Below, in pieces: positions 4,464 to 62,021 of a stretch of DNA of 64,000 nucleotides (within the stretch, counting starts at the first letter, position 1; the number at the start of each line of letters is the position of its first letter). Below the pieces are notes generated by a model, which did not search any database, had not been told where the DNA came from, and was given only the letters and a program-made list of their open reading frames with translations. Source of the stretch: a virus; IMG/VR virus record IMGVR_UViG_3300027861_000001, positions 32,001 through 96,000 of that record; one strand, given 5' to 3'. The position numbers were made by a program, and so were the translations under genes.

Positions 4464-5651
4464 GTGGACAATATTCCGGTAATGACTCAGATCATAAAAA
4501 AGTGCATCGAAGTAAAAAGGACGCCCCTGTTGTGGGGTAAACATGGTATTGGTAAATCTGATATCATAAGAGACATTGGAGAACAGTTGGGATTCGATAA
4601 GGTAATTGACTTGCGGCTGGGGCAGTTGGAAGTTGGTGACCTTATTGGGATGCCGGACAGAGAGTATTACTGTCCATCATGTAAAACTTCATTTGGAACA
4701 AAAGGTGATTTAATCTTTTGTCCTGTGTGTGAGGATGAAGGCAGAGGAAAGGTAGCAATCGCAGGCAGAACAATCTTTCTACCTCCAGATTGGTTACCAC
4801 AAAACGGAGAAAAGTATTTACTATTCTTCGACGAATTTAATAGAGGAAGGTTGGATGTTCAGCAGGCAGCTTTCCAAATTGTGTTGGATAGAAAAATCCA
4901 TCGTCACGTAATTCCTGACAATTGTGCAATTATTTGTGCTTGTAATCCTTCTGGTGGAAATTACAATGTTGAGGAATTGGATGAGGCTTTGATCGATAGG
5001 TTCATCAACATTAAGTTTTCTCTGAGGGCTGATGAATGGTTGAAGTGGGCTACTGATCATAATATTAATGAAAATATTGTGGACTTTATTATGACAGACA
5101 ATACCGCCCTCGGTGCTGATCCTATTGAAATTCCTGTTGAAATTAAACCTTCTCCACGCTCTTATGAGTTCCTTAGCAACGTAATTACAGGACTCGACAG
5201 GAACTATTGGTCAGCAACTGCGGCAATGATTGTTGGAGAAACCACCGCTTTACAGTTTATGGCAAGCCTTAAAACAGACCTTGATAAACCTGTTAGAGCA
5301 AAAGACATATTCGACAAATTCAACGATAAGAAAGACCCTTCAAAAGCTACTCCAACAAGAAGGAAAGTTATTGCTCAATGCAGAAAAACAGAAGGACAAA
5401 CAAGGTTTGATTTGCTTGACCAAACTATAAAAGAAATTGTGCGTGACTTGAAAGATGACCAAAGCAAAAAATACAATGAAAGTCAGCTTAACAATCTCGG
5501 CGATTTCCTTTTGTTGATTCCTAAAGACTTGGCATTTACTGCAATAAAAGACCTTTCCTTGATGAACGACGTAAACATGAGACTTCTATTGATTAGAACT
5601 GACCTATTCGACCTCATCAAAGGGGCTAGGGGAACTGACAAAGACGGTTAA
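4464..5651 (+). CDS. MoxR-like AAA+ ATPase with Zn-ribbon insertion
   Basis: Walker A GKHGIGKS, Walker B LLFFDEFNRG, ACNP, LDEALIDRF; CPSC..CPVC insert. Confidence 0.88.
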   Translation: MDNIPVMTQIIKKCIEVKRTPLLWGKHGIGKSDIIRDIGEQLGFDKVIDLRLGQLEVGDLIGMPDREYYCPSCKTSFGTKGDLIFCPVCEDEGRGKVAIAGRTIFLPPDWLPQNGEKYLLFFDEFNRGRLDVQQAAFQIVLDRKIHRHVIPDNCAIICACNPSGGNYNVEELDEALIDRFINIKFSLRADEWLKWATDHNINENIVDFIMTDNTALGADPIEIPVEIKPSPRSYEFLSNVITGLDRNYWSATAAMIVGETTALQFMASLKTDLDKPVRAKDIFDKFNDKKDPSKATPTRRKVIAQCRKTEGQTRFDLLDQTIKEIVRDLKDDQSKKYNESQLNNLGDFLLLIPKDLAFTAIKDLSLMNDVNMRLLLIRTDLFDLIKGARGTDKDG

Positions 5652-5662
5652 TTCCCCAAAAC

Positions 5663-5703
5663 AAGCTGGTGGTGTGTGTTAGCGAGGCATGCGCCACCAG
5701 CTT
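5663..5703 (+). other. long intergenic RNA hairpin between the MoxR and VWA genes
   Basis: AAGCTGGTGGTGTGTG pairs with CATGCGCCACCAGCTT (about 16-18 bp including GU); no U-tail. Confidence 0.65.
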
Positions 5704-5724
5704 ATCAATAAAGGAGAGAGAATA

Positions 5725-7269
5725 ATGGCAGAGAAAAAACAAGACACAAGCTATCTTGATAAGGTAGATGTTACTTCTCCAATTATAACTGATGCTTGCA
5801 TTGACCAAGAAATTATTCAGTTAGTATTGCTACATAAGTATTTTTATTCACACTTTTTACAGCAGTTTAGACGGCACATCATTAAAAAAGGTGACCCGTT
5901 GTGGGATAAAGTACCAACACTTGGTGTAAACATCACAGATGATTTACGTCCAAATTTATTTGTAAATGAGGCTTGGTATGGTAGTTTAACACCAGATGAG
6001 AAGCTAGCCGTGCTAGAGCATGAGGTTCTTCACATACTAAATAAACACTTAATAAGAAAAGAAGGCAGAGAACCTTATCTGTGGAATCTTGCTAGCGATG
6101 TTGCTATTAATCAATACATAAAAGGATTACCAAACGAGGGGCTTTGCCCTGATTGTAATATACTAGTCAGGCGCACAAGTGACGGTAAGTTACCAACACG
6201 TTGTAATGTATGTAACAGAGAGCTTGACCCTAAAAAAGATAAATGGGAAGCACTAGACTATCAAACTTTCAAGTTACTAAAAGATAAGAAATTACCTAAA
6301 GAAGAACCAACAGAATGTTATTATGACCTTATGAATGAAAACTTACCAAAAGAAACTATCCAACTTGGCATAAAAATGACTAAGGAAAAAACAAAAGGAT
6401 GTAAGGAGTGTGGTGGGTTTGGTAACTCAAACGATCCGCAACCAAGCGAAGAGCCACAAGACGGTGAGGGAAGTGGAGGACAGGGTGAAGAAGAATCCGA
6501 TAAGCACGGTTGTGGGCAGTTAGAAATAGATGGCGTAAAAGTTCCTATGACTATGGACCCACATGAAATTTGGGAAACTGGTTCTGATAATCAGGAAATG
6601 GCTCATGAAAAGATTAAAGAAATGGTTAGGTCTGCTCTTGATGAATCAAACCAAAGACAACAAGGGCATCTTCCAGACTTCTTAAGAGGTTTGATTGATT
6701 CGTGTATTGCTCATAAGATTCTTAACTGGAAATCAGAACTTCGTAGGTTCGTTGGTTATGAGGAATTTGCGAAGATGGAATCTACCAGAAAGAAAACCAA
6801 CAGACGATATGGTGTGTATCAGCCTGGAACTAGGGTAGTAAGGAAAGCACACATTGCTGTAATTGTAGATAGTTCTGGTTCTGTTTCTAATGACGAATTT
6901 GCTAAATTCTTTAAAGAAATAGAGTTTATGAAGAAGGCTGGTGTTGGTATCACTATTATTGAATGTGATGCTGATGTCCAATCTGTTTATGAGTATAAGA
7001 AACGACCAACTATCGAAAGAATTGGATATGGTGGCACAGACTTTAGACCACCTTTCAAGTTACTTGTTGATAAGAAGTATACACAAGGAAGGCATGGAAA
7101 CAACAAAACGTTTGAACTAAGAAAAAGTGTTGACTGCATCATTTACTTGACAGACGGTTATGGTAGTTTTCCTACGTTTGTTCCAAAACCTACTATTTGG
7201 GTTATGACTCCTAACTACCAAGACCCAAAGAATCCAGCTCTTGGTAAGGTTATAGTAATGAAAGACTAA
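5725..7269 (+). CDS. DUF2201-like metallopeptidase/VWA protein (MoxR partner)
   Basis: HEVLH, WNLASDVAINQ, C-terminal VWA with DSSGS, GGTDF and YLTDG. Confidence 0.88.
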   Translation: MAEKKQDTSYLDKVDVTSPIITDACIDQEIIQLVLLHKYFYSHFLQQFRRHIIKKGDPLWDKVPTLGVNITDDLRPNLFVNEAWYGSLTPDEKLAVLEHEVLHILNKHLIRKEGREPYLWNLASDVAINQYIKGLPNEGLCPDCNILVRRTSDGKLPTRCNVCNRELDPKKDKWEALDYQTFKLLKDKKLPKEEPTECYYDLMNENLPKETIQLGIKMTKEKTKGCKECGGFGNSNDPQPSEEPQDGEGSGGQGEEESDKHGCGQLEIDGVKVPMTMDPHEIWETGSDNQEMAHEKIKEMVRSALDESNQRQQGHLPDFLRGLIDSCIAHKILNWKSELRRFVGYEEFAKMESTRKKTNRRYGVYQPGTRVVRKAHIAVIVDSSGSVSNDEFAKFFKEIEFMKKAGVGITIIECDADVQSVYEYKKRPTIERIGYGGTDFRPPFKLLVDKKYTQGRHGNNKTFELRKSVDCIIYLTDGYGSFPTFVPKPTIWVMTPNYQDPKNPALGKVIVMKD

Positions 7270-7565
7270 TGAAAATCTTTAAAGTAAAAACATTTGGTAG
7301 TGGTATATCTATTAGGTGTAGTGCCGAAGATTGTGGTAATTGCAACATTAGGTTTAGGTGTTGGACAACTAACTACTTGGACTATACCGAAGCATATTAC
7401 TACTTTGAAATTGATAAATCTAGGCTACCGGCTGAGGATTGGGCAGTAAAAAAATTGAACCTTGGAAATAAATATGACACAAGAGGTTATTTCGCAGTAG
7501 TAAAAATACTTGAACTGTATTTGTTTGGTAGGGTAGTAAACAAATTCAAATCTGTGAGTAGTTAA
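7269..7565 (+). CDS. small protein with N-proximal tag
   Basis: CGNCNIRFRCWTT. Confidence 0.7.
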   Translation: MKIFKVKTFGSGISIRCSAEDCGNCNIRFRCWTTNYLDYTEAYYYFEIDKSRLPAEDWAVKKLNLGNKYDTRGYFAVVKILELYLFGRVVNKFKSVSS

Positions 7566-7567
7566 GT

Positions 7568-7996
7568 ATGGGAAAATCTATACCAATTCGAAAAGAATGC
7601 TTAGATAATAAGTTTATGTGTAATAGTTGTTCTGTGAGATACCTTTGTTACACAAACAGCTTACCTAGTAGAAAGTGCAGTGACTTAGAATATGCTTTTG
7701 ACTATAACAACACACCTTTTGAGTATGAAGATATTCTAGCTATTTGGGCAGCTGTTTATGGAGCAAATGACGGTTCCGACTGGTTTTGGGTAGTACAATT
7801 ATCTGGAAATAAATATTCATTAGTACGTGGTGGTTGTGACTATACAGGTTGGGACTGACAGAGTTGGGTTAGTTGCGAGTTCGCAACATCAACAGAAGAG
7901 GCAGCTAAGTTGTCACCTATTAAAGACGACGGCAGACCTATACAAGACACTTTGTTGAAACAAATAAAAGGTGAAATTCCTTATGGGACTGTTTAA
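7568..7996 (+). CDS. candidate selenoprotein (in-frame UGA at 7856-7858), also carries the tag
   Basis: Frame stays open for 45 codons after TGA to a TAA that overlaps the next ATG (TAATG). A hairpin follows the UGA. CNSCSVRYLCYTN near the N-terminus. Confidence 0.65.
7863..7893 (+). promoter_or_regulatory. SECIS-like hairpin
   Basis: Inner stem GTTGCG/CGCAAC with AGTT loop about 20 nt after UGA; outer stem GTTGG/TCAAC. Confidence 0.55.
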
Positions 7997-8223
7997 TGGA
8001 ATTACCAAAAATAGGTACTAGACTTATAGTGGTAAGCAACGAAGGAAGATGGTTGCCTAAAGGTGAGGTTGTAATATTTGATGGTACGTCTTACTCAGGT
8101 AACTGGATGATTATTACACCAGATGGTAGACGTTCGGGTGGGTGGTTGCCAGGAAGATTTAAAGTATGCCCAGCTAATACCTGTGATACATGTAAACAAC
8201 GATATAGGTGTTGGACTACTTAG
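7996..8223 (+). CDS. small SH3-like protein with C-terminal tag
   Basis: Ends CDTCKQRYRCWTT*. Confidence 0.75.
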   Translation: MELPKIGTRLIVVSNEGRWLPKGEVVIFDGTSYSGNWMIITPDGRRSGGWLPGRFKVCPANTCDTCKQRYRCWTT

Positions 8224-8958
8224 GAGGAAAACACTATGGATTTAAATGATATTTCAACAGAAGAATTAGAAGAAGAAGTCGAGAAAAGAAAGCGAGATGC
8301 CATACCAAAACCATTAAGTGTGATAGGTCTAACCGCTTTGACACGAATATGTAACGAATATATCAATGGATTAGCAGGTGGTTACCAAATTAAAGACGGT
8401 GAACATTACATCTTTGAAACAGCAATAGAAGCTGTATACGGTAAAGATGTGTGGGATTGGGTTAATTCACAAGACTGTATGTTGTAGGAAAATAAAAATG
8501 AAAAAGATAATAAACCTAATTAAAAACCTGTTAAACAGTAAACCAAAACAATCAAAGTATAATAACGTAGAAAAGAACGTGATGGATACGATAAAAGAAT
8601 ATGATAAAGGGCATCGTTAGTATGAGTAAAACACACGTAAAAGCATTTTTTAAGTTGTTTCTGGGTGTAGTAATAGTTCAATTACTGCTGGCACTGCTTT
8701 TTGTACCGTTCTGGAATATGTCTGTAGCTGAAACATTTACCTTTGCTAACAGTATAGAATATATTCAGGCACTTGGTGCGCTAGGAATATTTTGGTGCTT
8801 TTTACTTGTTACTCTAGTAATTAAATCGTTCGTAAGTTTGGTAACAGGTGCTATTGCTACTGTTCACATTACTAAAGCGTGGGAAACTGCCAAAGAAGAA
8901 GCTAGAAAAAAGATGGAAGAAAATATGGAAAAACTGGGCAAACATTTCCCTGATGATA

Positions 8959-9315
8959 ATGATGAATAAAAACGGATCGGGGTTAGGCGTGGAAAGTAAG
9001 TTTTTATGTTGTTACACTGAAGGAAACCCTTTGGAACTTGAATTTAAGTTTATTATAAAATTAGTTTACCGTGGTGTTTTCCAAAAGTATATACTTTACA
9101 AACGTGAAAACTTTCTTAATTACTTTGGTGATAAACGAAATCCATTCGAAAAAGATACGTACACGCATTTAGATTTAATGTACGAAAAGTTTTATATGGC
9201 AGGTTATACAGTAGATAAAAATTGTGATGATTGTAACTACAGGTTCTTCTGTTTTACTGATGAACCTATTTCGATAACTATCGACGCATCAGGGAAAAAT
9301 TGGATACTTTTATGA
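8959..9315 (+). CDS. protein with internal tag
   Basis: CDDCNYRFFCFTD; start position uncertain. Confidence 0.65.
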   Translation: MMNKNGSGLGVESKFLCCYTEGNPLELEFKFIIKLVYRGVFQKYILYKRENFLNYFGDKRNPFEKDTYTHLDLMYEKFYMAGYTVDKNCDDCNYRFFCFTDEPISITIDASGKNWILL

Positions 9316-9662
9316 AAAAGAAGTATTATCCTATAGTAACATTTCCAAGTAAATCCAGTAGTAAGGTTTATACTGTCTCAATGGATAATGATGGAGGATT
9401 AAGTTGTGATTGTCCTGCTTGGGTATTTAAAAAAGCTGGAGAAAGAATTTGTAGGCATATAAAAGAAGTCACAGCACAAGGTTTTGGTACAGTAGAAGGA
9501 AAGTTTGTTGTGTTAGTAGATTCATTGTCAAACAAAGAACCTATCTTCTGTAAAAAATATCCAAGGCAGTGTGATACTTGTAGTTTAAGATTTCCATGTT
9601 ATACAGCTAATACACCTGAGTTTTCTATTAAAGAATTGAGAAAAGAAGGTATTGTTAAGTGA
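9312..9662 (+). CDS. SWIM zinc-finger protein with tag
   Basis: SCDCPAW..CRH SWIM motif; CDTCSLRFPCYTA. Confidence 0.75.
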   Translation: MKKKYYPIVTFPSKSSSKVYTVSMDNDGGLSCDCPAWVFKKAGERICRHIKEVTAQGFGTVEGKFVVLVDSLSNKEPIFCKKYPRQCDTCSLRFPCYTANTPEFSIKELRKEGIVK

Positions 9663-44750: not shown

Positions 44751-45135
44751 CTTCTACTGTTATTAATTTCCACTCGAAATTGCCAGCTTTAATTGCCTTC
44801 TTAATGCTGTTCTGACGAGCAGTCGTCTTACTCTTTCCTTTCTTTATTTCAACAATTACCACTCTTTCAACTCTATTTTTAGACAACCCATCAAATACCA
44901 CAAAGTCAATCGGACTACCTAAGAACCTAGCGTCGCTAGGGTCAAACTCCCAACCAGGAAGATGTGGTACTAATTGTTCATAAACCTTACCTTCAATGGT
45001 GGCTCTACTCCTCTTAATTGCGTCCTGTCTAGCAAACTCTACTTTATCTTTCCAACGATGTTCTCTAACCAGTAGTAACACTAGCAAAAATAAAATTACG
45101 CAAACTCCAACTATCCCAAACATTAATTCAATCAT
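44728..45135 (-). CDS. Holliday-junction-resolvase-like endonuclease with N-terminal TM segment
   Basis: [30 protein letters not shown]. Confidence 0.82.
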
Positions 45136-46085
45136 TACTTGTTTTTTAACCTCTCTATCCTAGGAAGAAACCAGCGTGTTTCCCAATAGTTGGTTAATTC
45201 ACCAAAAGACTTAGAAGGTAAAGGAAGTAATGTATTATCCTTTTCGCATAAAAACTCTTGATAGTTATAAGATAGGGGGATTACATACACCCCACGCAAG
45301 TTTTCCATCCTCTGTGCCTTTGCATGTTTACCAAGTTTCTGAAATGTCTTTACAACTCCGTACCTATCTTTTACTGTACCGTCCTCGTTGTAATAAATTT
45401 CAGAATGTTTACCATGTGTCTTCTTATATTCTTCTCTAACCTTATCCTTCACACTTAGTGGGACAAGTACGGAAGAATAACCCTTTGTCGTGCCTAAGTA
45501 TTTAAACCCTTCTAATCTGTTATAAATACTCGACTTCCCGTACAAAGAAGTTACTGTATATAGTGCTAACTTGTGACCATACTTTTTCTCAAAATAAACC
45601 TGTACTTCTTCACTTTTTACAGACAACGCTGCAAGTTTACCGGTTAAATAGTTATTTAGTGGTGGAGTAGCAATACAATGTTGAACGTTCATTAGATAGT
45701 TTATTTTTTTATGCGTCCATTTATTCTCTTTCGTCCACCCTATATGTTTATCTCTAATCGGTATTGTCAAATCAGAAGAAAGACCTACGATTCCTAATAC
45801 AAATCCAGTTTCCTTATCCCTTATTAGGTAGTGAAATCTTCTTCCTACTTCTCCGCTAAGTGGGGCTGTTGACGTTATAACCCTTCCGTACCACCACAAA
45901 TCTTGTAGGTTTCCTGTATCACAAAAATCTATATAAGGTTGTATAGAACCTAAAGCAGGTACATTCATCTGCACTGTTTCCCAAACAGGTTTAATCTTTT
46001 GTAATCTGTCACTGTGTTTTACTAAATACTCTTCTTTGACTTCAGTTAATTTCTCTTTCAACTCATCTTTAGTAAATTCACTCAT
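45135..46085 (-). CDS. DUF4338/Druantia DruA-like protein
   Basis: GRRFHYLIRD..LGIVGLSS..RDKHIGW..GKLAAL..TSLYGKSSIYNRL..GTTKG. Confidence 0.7.
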   Translation of the reverse strand: MSEFTKDELKEKLTEVKEEYLVKHSDRLQKIKPVWETVQMNVPALGSIQPYIDFCDTGNLQDLWWYGRVITSTAPLSGEVGRRFHYLIRDKETGFVLGIVGLSSDLTIPIRDKHIGWTKENKWTHKKINYLMNVQHCIATPPLNNYLTGKLAALSVKSEEVQVYFEKKYGHKLALYTVTSLYGKSSIYNRLEGFKYLGTTKGYSSVLVPLSVKDKVREEYKKTHGKHSEIYYNEDGTVKDRYGVVKTFQKLGKHAKAQRMENLRGVYVIPLSYNYQEFLCEKDNTLLPLPSKSFGELTNYWETRWFLPRIERLKNK

Positions 46086-58483: not shown

Positions 58484-60001
58484 CTAAGTCGCACTACTGA
58501 ATCCACCATTATGCTTTTTAATCCCTTCCACTGTGTTCTTCTCAACATTTTCATACTCATCAGTAGCTTCGTCTAAAAAGTCTTCTACATCTTCCTCTGG
58601 AGGATCAGTCTCAGAAAATTTCAAACAAACTTCATCAAAATTAAGCTCCACTTTGTCTGTTGTCTTACCACCTCTGTTCTTGGCAATTGAGTACCACCCA
58701 ATATTTCTTTCTCTTAATTTTGTAGTACTGTTTCTGTGAAGTAGAACAACAGCATCAGCTTTGTTTTCAATGTCTCCGCTCTCTTTTAGATCATGTAATT
58801 CCGGTTCAGCACTTTCTGTTCTTCTTAACTGGCTAACTACAATGAAAGCAATGTTATTAGCTTTAGCAAAAGAAAAGAACTTGTTGACTATATCTGTTAT
58901 AGCTTTTCTTGTGTCCCCAAAATATTTCAAAGTTTGAAGATAATCAACCACGACAACATCAACAGGGTGATTTAACATGTGTCGTTTAACACTGTTAACT
59001 ATAAAATTACACGTCTGGTCACCCCTATCTTCTATCCATAAACCATCTGGTACTTCACTTATGAACATTTGTTGTGTATTAGCAATCTTCTTCAGTTCAT
59101 GGTTAGTAACAAGTGCTTTTTTCCAATCGTCTATTGATACACCCGCCTCAGCGCAAACTAGACGGTCAATGTACTGACCTTTTGTCATTTCTGGAGTAAA
59201 AACAAGAACTTTATCACCGTTTAAAATAAAATTAGTTACCATATTAGAAACCATAATTGACTTGCCTATATTAGTCTTAGCACCTAGTACCGTCAATTTC
59301 TGTTTACAAATCGCATCGTTCTTATCCAACCAGTAAAATCCTGACTTAACACCTTTATATTTAATTGGGTTTTCCTTCCTGTCCTTAAATCTATCATAAG
59401 CATCTGCCAATAAGGTATCTAACCTAACCAACCCATGAGTACTTAAAGTATTATCTAAAAGAACATTCTGCATCTGTGAAACTACCTCAATCAATTTAGT
59501 TTCATCAAAGCGTTTAGTTGTTTGTATTTTACTCGCTGCGTCTTTAAACTTGTTTAGTCTGTATCGTTCGAAAACTAATTTTACATACTCTTCCGTAATT
59601 TGTAGGCTAATGATACCTTCTGCTGCATGGAGTAGCTTCATTATGGTAGCTGGACCTCCAATATAATCAATAACCTGTGTACCATCTGGCATTGGGTCTT
59701 GCTTCTCAATCTCGTCTACTACTAACTCGTAAGTACAAACCCTTCTGGTCATACGAACGTTAGTTAAAATAGGAAAAATGATTCGATTTCTTTTCAGCGA
59801 AAAGTGTTCCTCAGTAAGTCCACTCTTTACTATTAAAGAAGCACAATCATCGTCCTGCATAAATATGCCAAGAACTGCATTCTCTGCGTCTTGATAAGAT
59901 ACAGAAACAACTTCTTCGTCTTCGTTTTCTATAGAAACAATGTCAGCTTGCGGTTCTGGATTATTAGCAAAGTCACTAAAACTACTACCTTCTCTTTCCA
60001 T
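58484..60001 (-). CDS. dnaB: replicative DNA helicase
   Basis: GAKTNIGKS, PEM, VVVDYLQ, SQLRR, LKESGDIE, KNRGG. Confidence 0.93.
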   Translation of the reverse strand: MEREGSSFSDFANNPEPQADIVSIENEDEEVVSVSYQDAENAVLGIFMQDDDCASLIVKSGLTEEHFSLKRNRIIFPILTNVRMTRRVCTYELVVDEIEKQDPMPDGTQVIDYIGGPATIMKLLHAAEGIISLQITEEYVKLVFERYRLNKFKDAASKIQTTKRFDETKLIEVVSQMQNVLLDNTLSTHGLVRLDTLLADAYDRFKDRKENPIKYKGVKSGFYWLDKNDAICKQKLTVLGAKTNIGKSIMVSNMVTNFILNGDKVLVFTPEMTKGQYIDRLVCAEAGVSIDDWKKALVTNHELKKIANTQQMFISEVPDGLWIEDRGDQTCNFIVNSVKRHMLNHPVDVVVVDYLQTLKYFGDTRKAITDIVNKFFSFAKANNIAFIVVSQLRRTESAEPELHDLKESGDIENKADAVVLLHRNSTTKLRERNIGWYSIAKNRGGKTTDKVELNFDEVCLKFSETDPPEEDVEDFLDEATDEYENVEKNTVEGIKKHNGGFSSAT

Positions 60002-62021
60002 AAATTCTCTTATCCTCTATCCTTAAATAATCCTCTACGTTTAAGGCTCCTTTTACCGCAATTTCAAACTTTCGAAGACCTTCTACCTCAAGAAAAGTAT
60101 CAAGGTCTGTTTTATCAGCACCACGTAAAGGTAGAAAAGCAACTTTCAAGTTCTTTATTACCTCACCTATAGAACGAGCCATAATAAATCCTGGCTTTCT
60201 TTTACCTGGTGATGCTTCATTGTCTGGAATTAAAATTACCTCTTTACCTTTTAACTCTTCTACCCATCGATCATCCCATCTACCAATACCTGCGGTAGCA
60301 ACACATGGAAATCCGTTCTGAACAGCTGCCATAGCTTTGAACTCACCCTCAGTTATAAGAACTGTGCTGCTATTTTTTATAACGTCATGGTTGAACAAAA
60401 AATTAGCTCCTCTAGCAGAGTAGTTGCCAGACAAGCTTAAGTACTTTGGTGTATTCGTTTTGTAAGAAAAAAGTGTCTCCAACATTCTACCTCTTATATC
60501 AGTAACTTCATCACCTACTATATAAGGAATAGTTACACGATTAGAGAGTAGTGGATACTGTTGAGAAATAACACCCGCATCACTGGCAATCGAATTAGCA
60601 TACTCACTATAATAATCTGCTGAACAGAAACCAATCCTAAAGTCATTTAAGGTTTTTTCCTTAAATCCTCTAGCTTTTAAGTACTCCAAAGCAACAGGTA
60701 AGTTACTGTGGAACTTATCTGTTAACTCTTTATAAAACTCTCTTATTTTTGGTACGTCAAGAACCTTCTGTTCAACTTCTTTTACTACATAACCTTCTTC
60801 TGGTATTATTCTCCCCTTACCGTTATAACAATGCCAACAGTTGTGTACAAGTACACCATTAACCGTATATTTATGTGAGTCCTCAATAGCCAAGTCATAG
60901 AAGTAGTCTTCACAATCTTCTAAAACTACAGTATCTACTTTTATACCATTAAACCAAGTATTTAAGCGTCTTGATATGCTGTAAGTGCTATTATTACTAC
61001 ACGCATCAGAAATCCAATTAATATATGTAGGTTTTTTTGTGTCTTTATAATAATTTTTAGCAAGATAACCCGAACAACTGTACCCACAATATGAAGCTAT
61101 TTCCTTTACTTGCATACACAATATTTCTGATGTTTGCCCTAGTCTATTGGATTTAACGCTATCGTTAGACGTATTATAACCGTCACCATCAAGAATACCT
61201 TTTAACAATATTTTAGCTCTATTTATAGGTAATGTCATTAATCCTAGTGGTATTTTTTTATTAGTACAACCATACCCAAACATTGAACCAAACAAGTAGG
61301 ACAAATAAACACTACTTATAGTTACTTTAGTGCAAGTTTTAGTTTTACTCATATATCTCCTAGGAGAAAAACCTTTTCTTGAAAAATAGTCTTCTACAAA
61401 TTTTATATAATCCTTTTCATTAGAGTTAAAAGCAAAACTTATTTGCCCGTAAGACGCACTACCTTCAGCAATATACAACCCTGACACTCTTAAGAACTCG
61501 TCGTCAGTATCAACTACAAAATATTTTACTATGTCACCAAAATATTTACTCAATAATGAAGCATCTACCACGATTTCTCTACGATCTTGTAAGTCATTTA
61601 TAACTGGATATACGAGTATGTCACCTTTTTTTAACTCTTCCGCACATTTTTCTTTTATATCAGTACCGTCTTGAACATACAGTATATGATCAGGAGTACA
61701 TATTATCGGTCTAGTCAATTGTTTAGAAATTATGGTAGCTTTTTTGTATACTTTATTCTTGAATGTTTTTACTACCTTATTAAACTTACCAAATTCGGAC
61801 AAAACCATGTCACCTTCGAGTACAGTATCTATGGTTTTATATCCTTCTCTAGTAAGTATCAAACTTGATTTATCAAAGCAACGCCAAACTAGTTTTTCTG
61901 TGTTGAAGTTAGCATCAGAACAACCGCAACAAGGACAAACACCTAAAAATTCTCCTCTATGCCGTTGCTTAATGACAAGGTCATCTACCATGCTCATTCG
62001 TACGTTCACGTGCCCTTCCAT
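59985..62021 (-). CDS. dnaG: DNA primase (Zn finger + TOPRIM) containing an intein
   Basis: YLKARG, IRGR, PKYL, ITEGEFKA; Zn finger split by an intein. Confidence 0.88.
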   Translation of the reverse strand: MEGHVNVRMSMVDDLVIKQRHRGEFLGVCPCCGCSDANFNTEKLVWRCFDKSSLILTREGYKTIDTVLEGDMVLSEFGKFNKVVKTFKNKVYKKATIISKQLTRPIICTPDHILYVQDGTDIKEKCAEELKKGDILVYPVINDLQDRREIVVDASLLSKYFGDIVKYFVVDTDDEFLRVSGLYIAEGSASYGQISFAFNSNEKDYIKFVEDYFSRKGFSPRRYMSKTKTCTKVTISSVYLSYLFGSMFGYGCTNKKIPLGLMTLPINRAKILLKGILDGDGYNTSNDSVKSNRLGQTSEILCMQVKEIASYCGYSCSGYLAKNYYKDTKKPTYINWISDACSNNSTYSISRRLNTWFNGIKVDTVVLEDCEDYFYDLAIEDSHKYTVNGVLVHNCWHCYNGKGRIIPEEGYVVKEVEQKVLDVPKIREFYKELTDKFHSNLPVALEYLKARGFKEKTLNDFRIGFCSADYYSEYANSIASDAGVISQQYPLLSNRVTIPYIVGDEVTDIRGRMLETLFSYKTNTPKYLSLSGNYSARGANFLFNHDVIKNSSTVLITEGEFKAMAAVQNGFPCVATAGIGRWDDRWVEELKGKEVILIPDNEASPGKRKPGFIMARSIGEVIKNLKVAFLPLRGADKTDLDTFLEVEGLRKFEIAVKGALNVEDYLRIEDKRIYGKRR
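60840..61880 (-). mobile_element. intein with LAGLIDADG homing endonuclease (347 aa)
   Basis: WR|CFDKSS..CTPDH..GLYIAEG..GILDGDG..YDLAIE..VLVHN|CWHC. Confidence 0.93.

Follow-up and report, generated by a model that had tools for sequence, protein, structure and literature searches.

What does the TGA at position 7856 mean in the 64,000-nucleotide stretch of viral DNA considered here (the window)? An open reading frame that begins at ATG 7568 runs to ...VRGGCDYTGWD and is halted there by this TGA, as seen in the sequence and its translation; past it, the same frame continues for 45 codons (QSWVSCEFATS...PYGTV) up to a TAA at 7994–7996, and the last base of this TAA is shared as the A of the next gene's ATG at 7996. 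Reading under table 11 leaves a non-coding gap of 137 nt (7859–7995). The gap was searched as a possible home of a terminator or promoter, an explanation that was rejected since no terminator-like or promoter-like site lies there. The source phage genome is a complete record of 149,053 bp with direct terminal repeats and a GC content of 37.3%. The gene-caller version of the window protein is a fragment of 96 aa (P0002), cut at the UGA. An earlier interpretation made without database searches (the sequence-only reading) had drawn attention to the halted frame, its continuation into the overlapping start and the otherwise unexplained gap, all of which are present, and had proposed a 142-aa selenocysteine (Sec) protein with a C-x6-U site. 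This interpretation is supported by the Cys found in homologs, by the recurrence of the TGA in other sequences and by a covarying hairpin that is specific to the TGA forms, and comparison of these sequences makes it very probable that the gene encodes a 142-residue selenoprotein with Sec inserted at UGA 7856 (Table 1).

Table 1. Coordinates of the proposed selenoprotein gene and its parts in the window.
Feature	Coordinates	Strand	Basis
Full ORF of the putative selenoprotein, 142 aa plus TAA stop, with UGA 7856–7858 read through	7568..7996	+	Sequence, translation, whole-length homology
Candidate Sec codon UGA (residue 97), next base C at 7859	7856..7858	+	Cys in homologs; same TGA in other sequences
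Conserved family domain, residues 38–142, with invariant GGCDYTGWD-[C/U]-QS loop	7679..7993	+	Invariant columns and predicted secondary structure
Three-Cys tag CNSCSVRYLCYT, residues 18–29	7619..7654	+	Motif seen in translation
SECIS-type hairpin	7863..7893	+	Fold, shared core in other TGA forms, bSECIS criteria, covariance model

Global recoding of TGA was considered and rejected. TGA terminates 53 of the 260 greedy ORFs of the complete genome, and the coding density is not raised when TGA is read as sense, which agrees with the statement of the sequence-only reading that TGA is a normal stop elsewhere. In a scan of the 149-kb genome, this was the only site at which a TGA with the frame open before and after it is combined with a stem of 6 bp or more that bears a GU loop, and the scan yielded no further convincing UGA-plus-hairpin candidates in that genome.

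When the read-through product (P0001) was used as a query, the search returned its own 96-aa protein and five homologs with 31–47% identity. All five read GGCDYTGWD-C-QSW and aligned through to the C-terminus, the Cys being enclosed by the invariant block GGCDYTGWDCQSW, so that the homologs carry Cys at the UGA and the similarity extends past it. At the DNA level, 28 IMG/VR loci bear the motif, and 27 of them have TGT or TGC at the UGA column. Searched with a profile, 1.84 billion representative proteins yielded 1,570 clusters at E ≤ 0.001 (625 at E ≤ 1e-10), and 154 family proteins were checked, of which 136 matched the strict form of the motif. Cys occupies the UGA column in 133 of these 136; of the other three, two stop at GWD (the window protein and P0140) because gene callers truncated both, and one has Trp. 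A further 18 of the 154 fall outside the strict pattern, with Cys at the column in all 15 of those listed. The sole Trp at this column among the 154 proteins is that of P0104 (Logan, 184 aa), possibly a TGA form that its gene caller translated under code 4. The statement of the sequence-only reading that homologs read CDYTGWDC is correct for the five first homologs, the IMG/VR loci and the 154 proteins, and the two patterns that had been named as speaking against a selenoprotein, homologs ending at GWD and Trp or another residue at the column, were encountered only as TGA forms truncated by gene callers and as the one Trp of P0104.

The conservation of the family is not confined to the vicinity of the UGA. 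C90, G94, W95 and C97 are invariant in an alignment of 95 sequences (A3), and downstream of the UGA the family conserves QSW, AAKL, L129 and Q132; the window protein retains the family-conserved downstream residues Q98, S99, W100, K114, L129 and Q132. Searches with Pfam and PHROGs gave no match for the read-through product, Pfam gave none for the homologs (the 95 family members being among those searched), and a profile search of the PDB sequences returned matches at chance level only. The Pfam family DUF7574 (PF24459), hinted at by ESM Atlas feature neighbours of P0007, was discarded, as the genome has no match to it at E ≤ 10 and none of the 95 family members match at E ≤ 0.01. As far as these searches show, the protein family appears to be phage-specific. 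In some members, Cys and Sec forms alike, the conserved domain is preceded by N-terminal extensions of 100–250 aa (the loci with such long extensions include L032, L055, L058, L066, L067 and L085), and the domain is therefore modular. No conserved neighbour genes were found across 79 family loci.

The same TGA was looked for in other phages with exact DNA-pattern scans, in which the motif was followed by TGA or TGY and TGA was also placed at control codons. The motif followed by TGA was found in 7 viral contigs of IMG/VR, in 72 metagenome contigs and in 1 genome contig, belonging to a MAG, in total about 80 contigs with 65 distinct sequences. The motif followed by TGY was found in 75 viral contigs of IMG/VR, and therefore about 9% of the family there is of the TGA form. 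At the control codons, the first Cys of C-x6-C and the Trp of the motif, TGA was found in none of the IMG/VR viral contigs; in this family the TGA is specific to one codon. The frame stays open for 29–98 codons beyond the TGA in all of the TGA forms that are uncut by a contig end, and the peptide that follows in the other contigs is recognisably homologous to the Cys forms. About one third of the TGA-form ORFs in these other contigs end finally at TGA, so that in those phages, too, TGA acts as a stop. In at least 90% of 63 TGA forms the UGA is followed by C (alignment A2, column 4; window 7859). UGA followed by C is the weakest termination context, a leaky stop, and the UGA of E. coli fdhF is followed by C as in the window gene. 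The first codon past the UGA is mostly CAG or CAA (Gln), however, and is so in the Cys forms too, so that coding constraint and termination context are inseparable at window 7859.

The hairpin that the sequence-only reading had described downstream of the UGA, GUUGCG-AGUU-CGCAAC with an outer stem, is present, and 19 nt separate the UGA from its loop. Its upper stem pairs 7872–7877 with 7882–7887 around the apical loop AGUU at 7878–7881, and its lower stem pairs 7863–7867 with 7889–7893. When the 45 nt that begin with the UGA are folded, it is the minimum free energy (MFE) structure (−10.6 kcal/mol; z = −2.4; an equally good fold was reached by 4 of 200 shuffled sequences), and in a 61-nt stretch that starts 6 nt upstream of the UGA a different fold takes its place as the MFE structure. 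The consensus of Zhang and Gladyshev for the bacterial SECIS element (bSECIS), as summarised in PMC13188914, calls for an apical loop of 3–9 nt on an upper stem of 4–16 bp, a G in the first two loop positions, a distance from UGA to loop of 16–37 nt and an MFE of at most −7.5 kcal/mol. The window hairpin agrees with all four: the loop is 4 nt long, the upper stem has 6 bp, loop position 2 is a G and is followed by U, the spacing is 19 nt and the energy is that given above. When the same peptide was resampled with synonymous codons, 6 bp were reached in 3.6% of the resamplings (p = 0.036). The window hairpin by itself is only moderately unusual, and the case for Sec rests on the comparison of the family, not on the window fold alone.

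For this comparison, a SECIS-type hairpin was taken to be a perfect stem, 5 bp or longer, whose loop starts 20–27 nt after the U of the UGA and contains GU. Such a hairpin is found in 44 of 63 TGA forms versus 2 of 64 Cys forms (Fisher p = 1.4e-16), the sampling being unbalanced in that the TGA forms are mainly metagenome contigs and the Cys forms are from IMG/VR, and related sequences not being independent. The loop starts form a sharp peak at +23 in the TGA forms, whereas they are scattered in the Cys forms. Perfect stems of this minimum length are present in 57 of the 63 TGA forms, with 42 distinct arm sequences, and the loops are AGUU, GGUC, GGU or CGUGA; of these GGUC, which was found in many family members by per-sequence hairpin calling, is the loop of fdhF. 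A pair count in a fixed register over all 63 TGA forms showed only 56% of the cells paired, because the register of the hairpin shifts by 1 nt between subgroups, and this count was replaced by the per-sequence calling together with a subset in one register. In this subset of 18 sequences all six pairs vary in both arms, and the pairing breaks down once the partner columns are shifted; since the subset was selected for pairing, its 99% paired state exists by construction, which is not true of the variety of pair types. Synonymous resampling gave 2.75 bp expected for the Sec forms, where 5.98 bp are observed, and 2.21 bp expected for the Cys forms, where 2.08 bp are observed. The excess occurs in the Sec forms alone, and therefore the structure is selected at the RNA level, solely where the codon is TGA.

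The window takes part in this pattern. Its GCG-AGUU-CGC core and the offset of this core recur in L049, L071, L075, L088, L099 and L115, L088 having a 16-nt hairpin identical to that of the window, and the core is placed 1 base closer to the UGA than that of the main TGA group. A covariance model (R1) was built from 18 TGA forms, with the window and its subgroup left out, and its top match in the 64-kb window, with filters off, was 7856–7894 (12.6 bits, E = 0.14); with default filters the model missed the site. None of the Rfam SECIS families matched window positions 7800–7960 at E ≤ 10. The Rfam bacterial SECIS models are lineage-specific, so such an absent match carries little information.

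A tree of 117 family members was used to follow the Cys and Sec states. The two forms are intermingled within each of the two well-supported major clades, and at least 4 changes of state are forced by the starred (well-supported) branches and 30 are counted on the best tree, which is short and poorly resolved and in which the Sec forms were sampled mostly from metagenomes and the Cys forms mostly from IMG/VR. The interspersion implies frequent switches and, with them, transitional states, one of which might be seen in the window: a true Sec form that is undecoded in its present host, after the phage changed host or the host lost the Sec trait, and that yields a 96-aa product followed by a decaying relic. 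This would be hard to reconcile with the state of the gene, where the UGA, its UGA-C context, the hairpin, the 45-codon frame and the coupling of stop and start are all intact and the conserved downstream residues listed above are kept, and such a relic is considered very unlikely.

It is also highly improbable that the UGA is decoded without Sec, either through near-cognate read-through by Trp or Cys or by means of an opal suppressor tRNA or a reassigned TGA of the host. A leaky UGA-C and the general ability of downstream structures to stimulate read-through would agree with such decoding, as would the Trp of P0104, which may stem from a code-4 TGA, but the column is an invariant Cys, so that a Trp would stand in for an unvarying residue, and the size, spacing and G[G/U] loop of the hairpin are those of the bacterial SECIS model, with GGUC and AGUU loops recurring over covarying stems. 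TGA, moreover, is an ordinary stop in the genome, and many of the TGA-form ORFs in other contigs terminate at it. The phage is without a suppressor tRNA: among its 23 tRNAs are the normal ones for Cys (GCA) and Trp (CCA), and none has a UCA anticodon. The least probable explanation is that a Cys-form gene (intact with Cys, or a fresh pseudogene) has acquired the TGA by sequencing error or by a recent nonsense mutation, next to a coincidental hairpin. In its favour, TGT or TGC becomes TGA by a one-base change, the nearest relative is just 48% identical with no near-identical second assembly to compare, and the window hairpin alone has the modest p-value quoted above. Against it, such a hairpin is rare in Cys-form genes, the window has the exact core and offset of other TGA forms and, like them, C after the UGA, neither control codon (the other Cys and the Trp) was TGA in the scans, and the 45 downstream codons are undamaged as far as the coupled TAATG that is usual here. 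A miscall at the TGA is ruled out by indirect evidence only, namely the hairpin accompanying it.

With Sec as the preferred meaning of the UGA, decoding may be pictured on the model of E. coli fdhF. In the infected cell, host SelB together with GTP and Sec-tRNA(Sec) would bind the hairpin in the mRNA and hand selenocysteine to the UGA, which lies in the weak termination context UGA-C. Translation would then run on to the TAA and be coupled there to the next gene, and the product would consist of a genome-specific three-Cys tag at the N terminus and a small alpha/beta domain that is widespread in phages. The sequence-only reading had noted that tRNA-Sec and sel genes are missing from the window, and the same holds for the entire 149-kb genome: selA, selB and selD are absent from it, and the tRNA-Sec model matches ordinary tRNAs only, below its cut-off. 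tRNA-Sec is absent from two other TGA-form phage records as well. Since the phage is without tRNA-Sec, selA, selB and selD, the host would have to supply the Sec machinery. The added suggestion of a probably anaerobic host did not gain support from anything in the analysis. Within the phage collection, no sequence is more than 31% identical to the DNA polymerase of this phage, and a Ratteibacteria MAG that includes a TGA-form contig has no tRNA-Sec over the cut-off, the MAG being incomplete and the contig possibly mis-binned.

The structure of the protein was modelled with AlphaFold2 from 95 sequences (mean pLDDT 84.2, pTM 0.74). The core of the model consists of a helix (38–45), four strands (56–63, 72–78, 82–91 and 98–106) and two further helices (109–114 and 125–133). 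C90 lies at the end of strand 3 and U97 just before strand 4, where they flank the invariant DYTGWD turn, and according to the model a protein ending at the UGA would be deprived of a core strand and both C-terminal helices. Residues 1–30, which hold the three-Cys tag, are modelled with a mean pLDDT of about 47–56. Foldseek found nothing at E ≤ 0.001 in the PDB and BFVD. The best structural matches, from a wide VIA search, were the WGR domain of PARP1/PARP3, with Z = 5.2–5.7 over 80–93 residues, and cystatins, with Z of about 4; the values for WGR are under the 7–8 that is typical of the best chance matches. The model is like the WGR and cystatin-like folds in having one helix packed on a curved antiparallel sheet, and unlike them in that there is no sequence similarity and no counterpart of the C-x6-C/U loop, the scores being in the range of a common arrangement. 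The middling matches to WGR and cystatins do not amount to a family assignment. Because Sec normally replaces a catalytic redox Cys (PMC1794560), a selenol/thiol redox pair is suggested for this protein. The C-x6-U motif is probably a redox site; that C90 and U97, on the two arms of a beta-hairpin, would be a redox-active selenol/thiol pair forming a selenenylsulfide, in the manner of other selenoproteins with catalytic Cys forms, is a tentative proposal, somewhat more doubtful than not, and the biochemical function of the protein is a guess.

Ahead of the conserved domain, the window protein has a 37-aa N-terminal extension, and it is this extension that carries the three-Cys tag that the sequence-only reading had rightly pointed out. 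The homologs are without it and start, in alignment A1, near residue 29–38 of the window protein; as no family homolog has the extension, the tag would have been added in this genome to a widely distributed domain. The pattern of the tag, C-x2-C-x2-R-[FY]-x-C-[WYF]-T (residues C18–T29), is recurrent in this genome, and the same tag is present in four small ORFs nearby (7269–7565, 7996–8223, 8848–9315 and 9300–9662). Just upstream of the selenoprotein gene are a MoxR-type AAA ATPase (AAA_5) at 4464–5651 and then, at 5689–7269, a DUF2201 putative metallopeptidase with a VWA-like domain, for which the PHROGs label is 'HNH endonuclease'. Farther along the window, a 316-aa ORF at 45135–46085 (minus strand) has a Pfam match to DruA (E = 7e-28), the anti-phage defence protein of Druantia, and is thus a match to a defence-system component on a phage genome, and a primase-like gene (DNAG_N, DUF3854) at 59985–62021 (minus strand) is split by an intein with a LAGLIDADG domain.

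The insertion of Sec is well known in bacteria, archaea and eukaryotes. The closest parallels are the bacterial genes with a SECIS element inside the ORF, such as E. coli fdhF, which have an in-frame UGA where homologs have Cys and a hairpin directly downstream within the ORF, as is the case here. Unlike those genes, the one described here is on a phage without any Sec machinery, and unlike the bacterial selenoproteins, its family is without cellular annotation, Pfam model or Rfam SECIS match and its use of SelB is predicted. The only viral selenoproteins named in PMC8310308 are the glutathione peroxidases (GPx) of molluscum contagiosum virus and fowlpox virus. These are similar in being encoded by a virus, with UGA redefined as Sec by the machinery of the host, and the fowlpox enzyme is also similar in that its SECIS is within the coding region (PMC8310308); they differ in belonging to eukaryotic viruses, with a eukaryotic-type SECIS and genes captured from the host, whereas here the element is of the bacterial type and the virus is a tailed phage. 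The recoding of stop codons in phages (TGA to Trp, TAG to Gln) likewise has an in-frame stop read as sense, but it is genome-wide, in contrast to the single site seen here, where the codon stands against Cys, not Trp, and a suppressor tRNA is lacking.

No description of a phage-encoded selenoprotein was found in the literature covered, subscription journals being outside that coverage. The words phage, virus and viral appear nowhere in the text of a 2026 review of the prokaryotic selenoproteome (PMC13188914), and predicted tRNA-Sec genes have been described in huge phages with no selenoprotein named (PMC10747093). The proposed mechanism would be the known bacterial one, and a phage family that relies on host SelB would, as far as was found, be new. 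If confirmed, the finding would mean that phages exploit a specialised recoding pathway of the host and that such genes are systematically cut short by gene callers. Host prediction could then draw on the Cys or Sec state, which would restrict hosts to Sec-decoding bacteria, and a very conserved C-x6-[C/U] site would be opened to biochemical study.

On a wider scale, it seems likely, though less so than for the window gene, that GGCDYTGWD-U marks a selenoprotein family specific to tailed phages, with about 1,570 clusters of Cys and Sec forms (50% identity), translated entirely with SelB and tRNA-Sec of the host and having switched between Cys and Sec many times. If this is true, Sec recoding would be a regular part of phage gene expression, and the Sec state of such a gene would be a genomic marker that the host decodes Sec.
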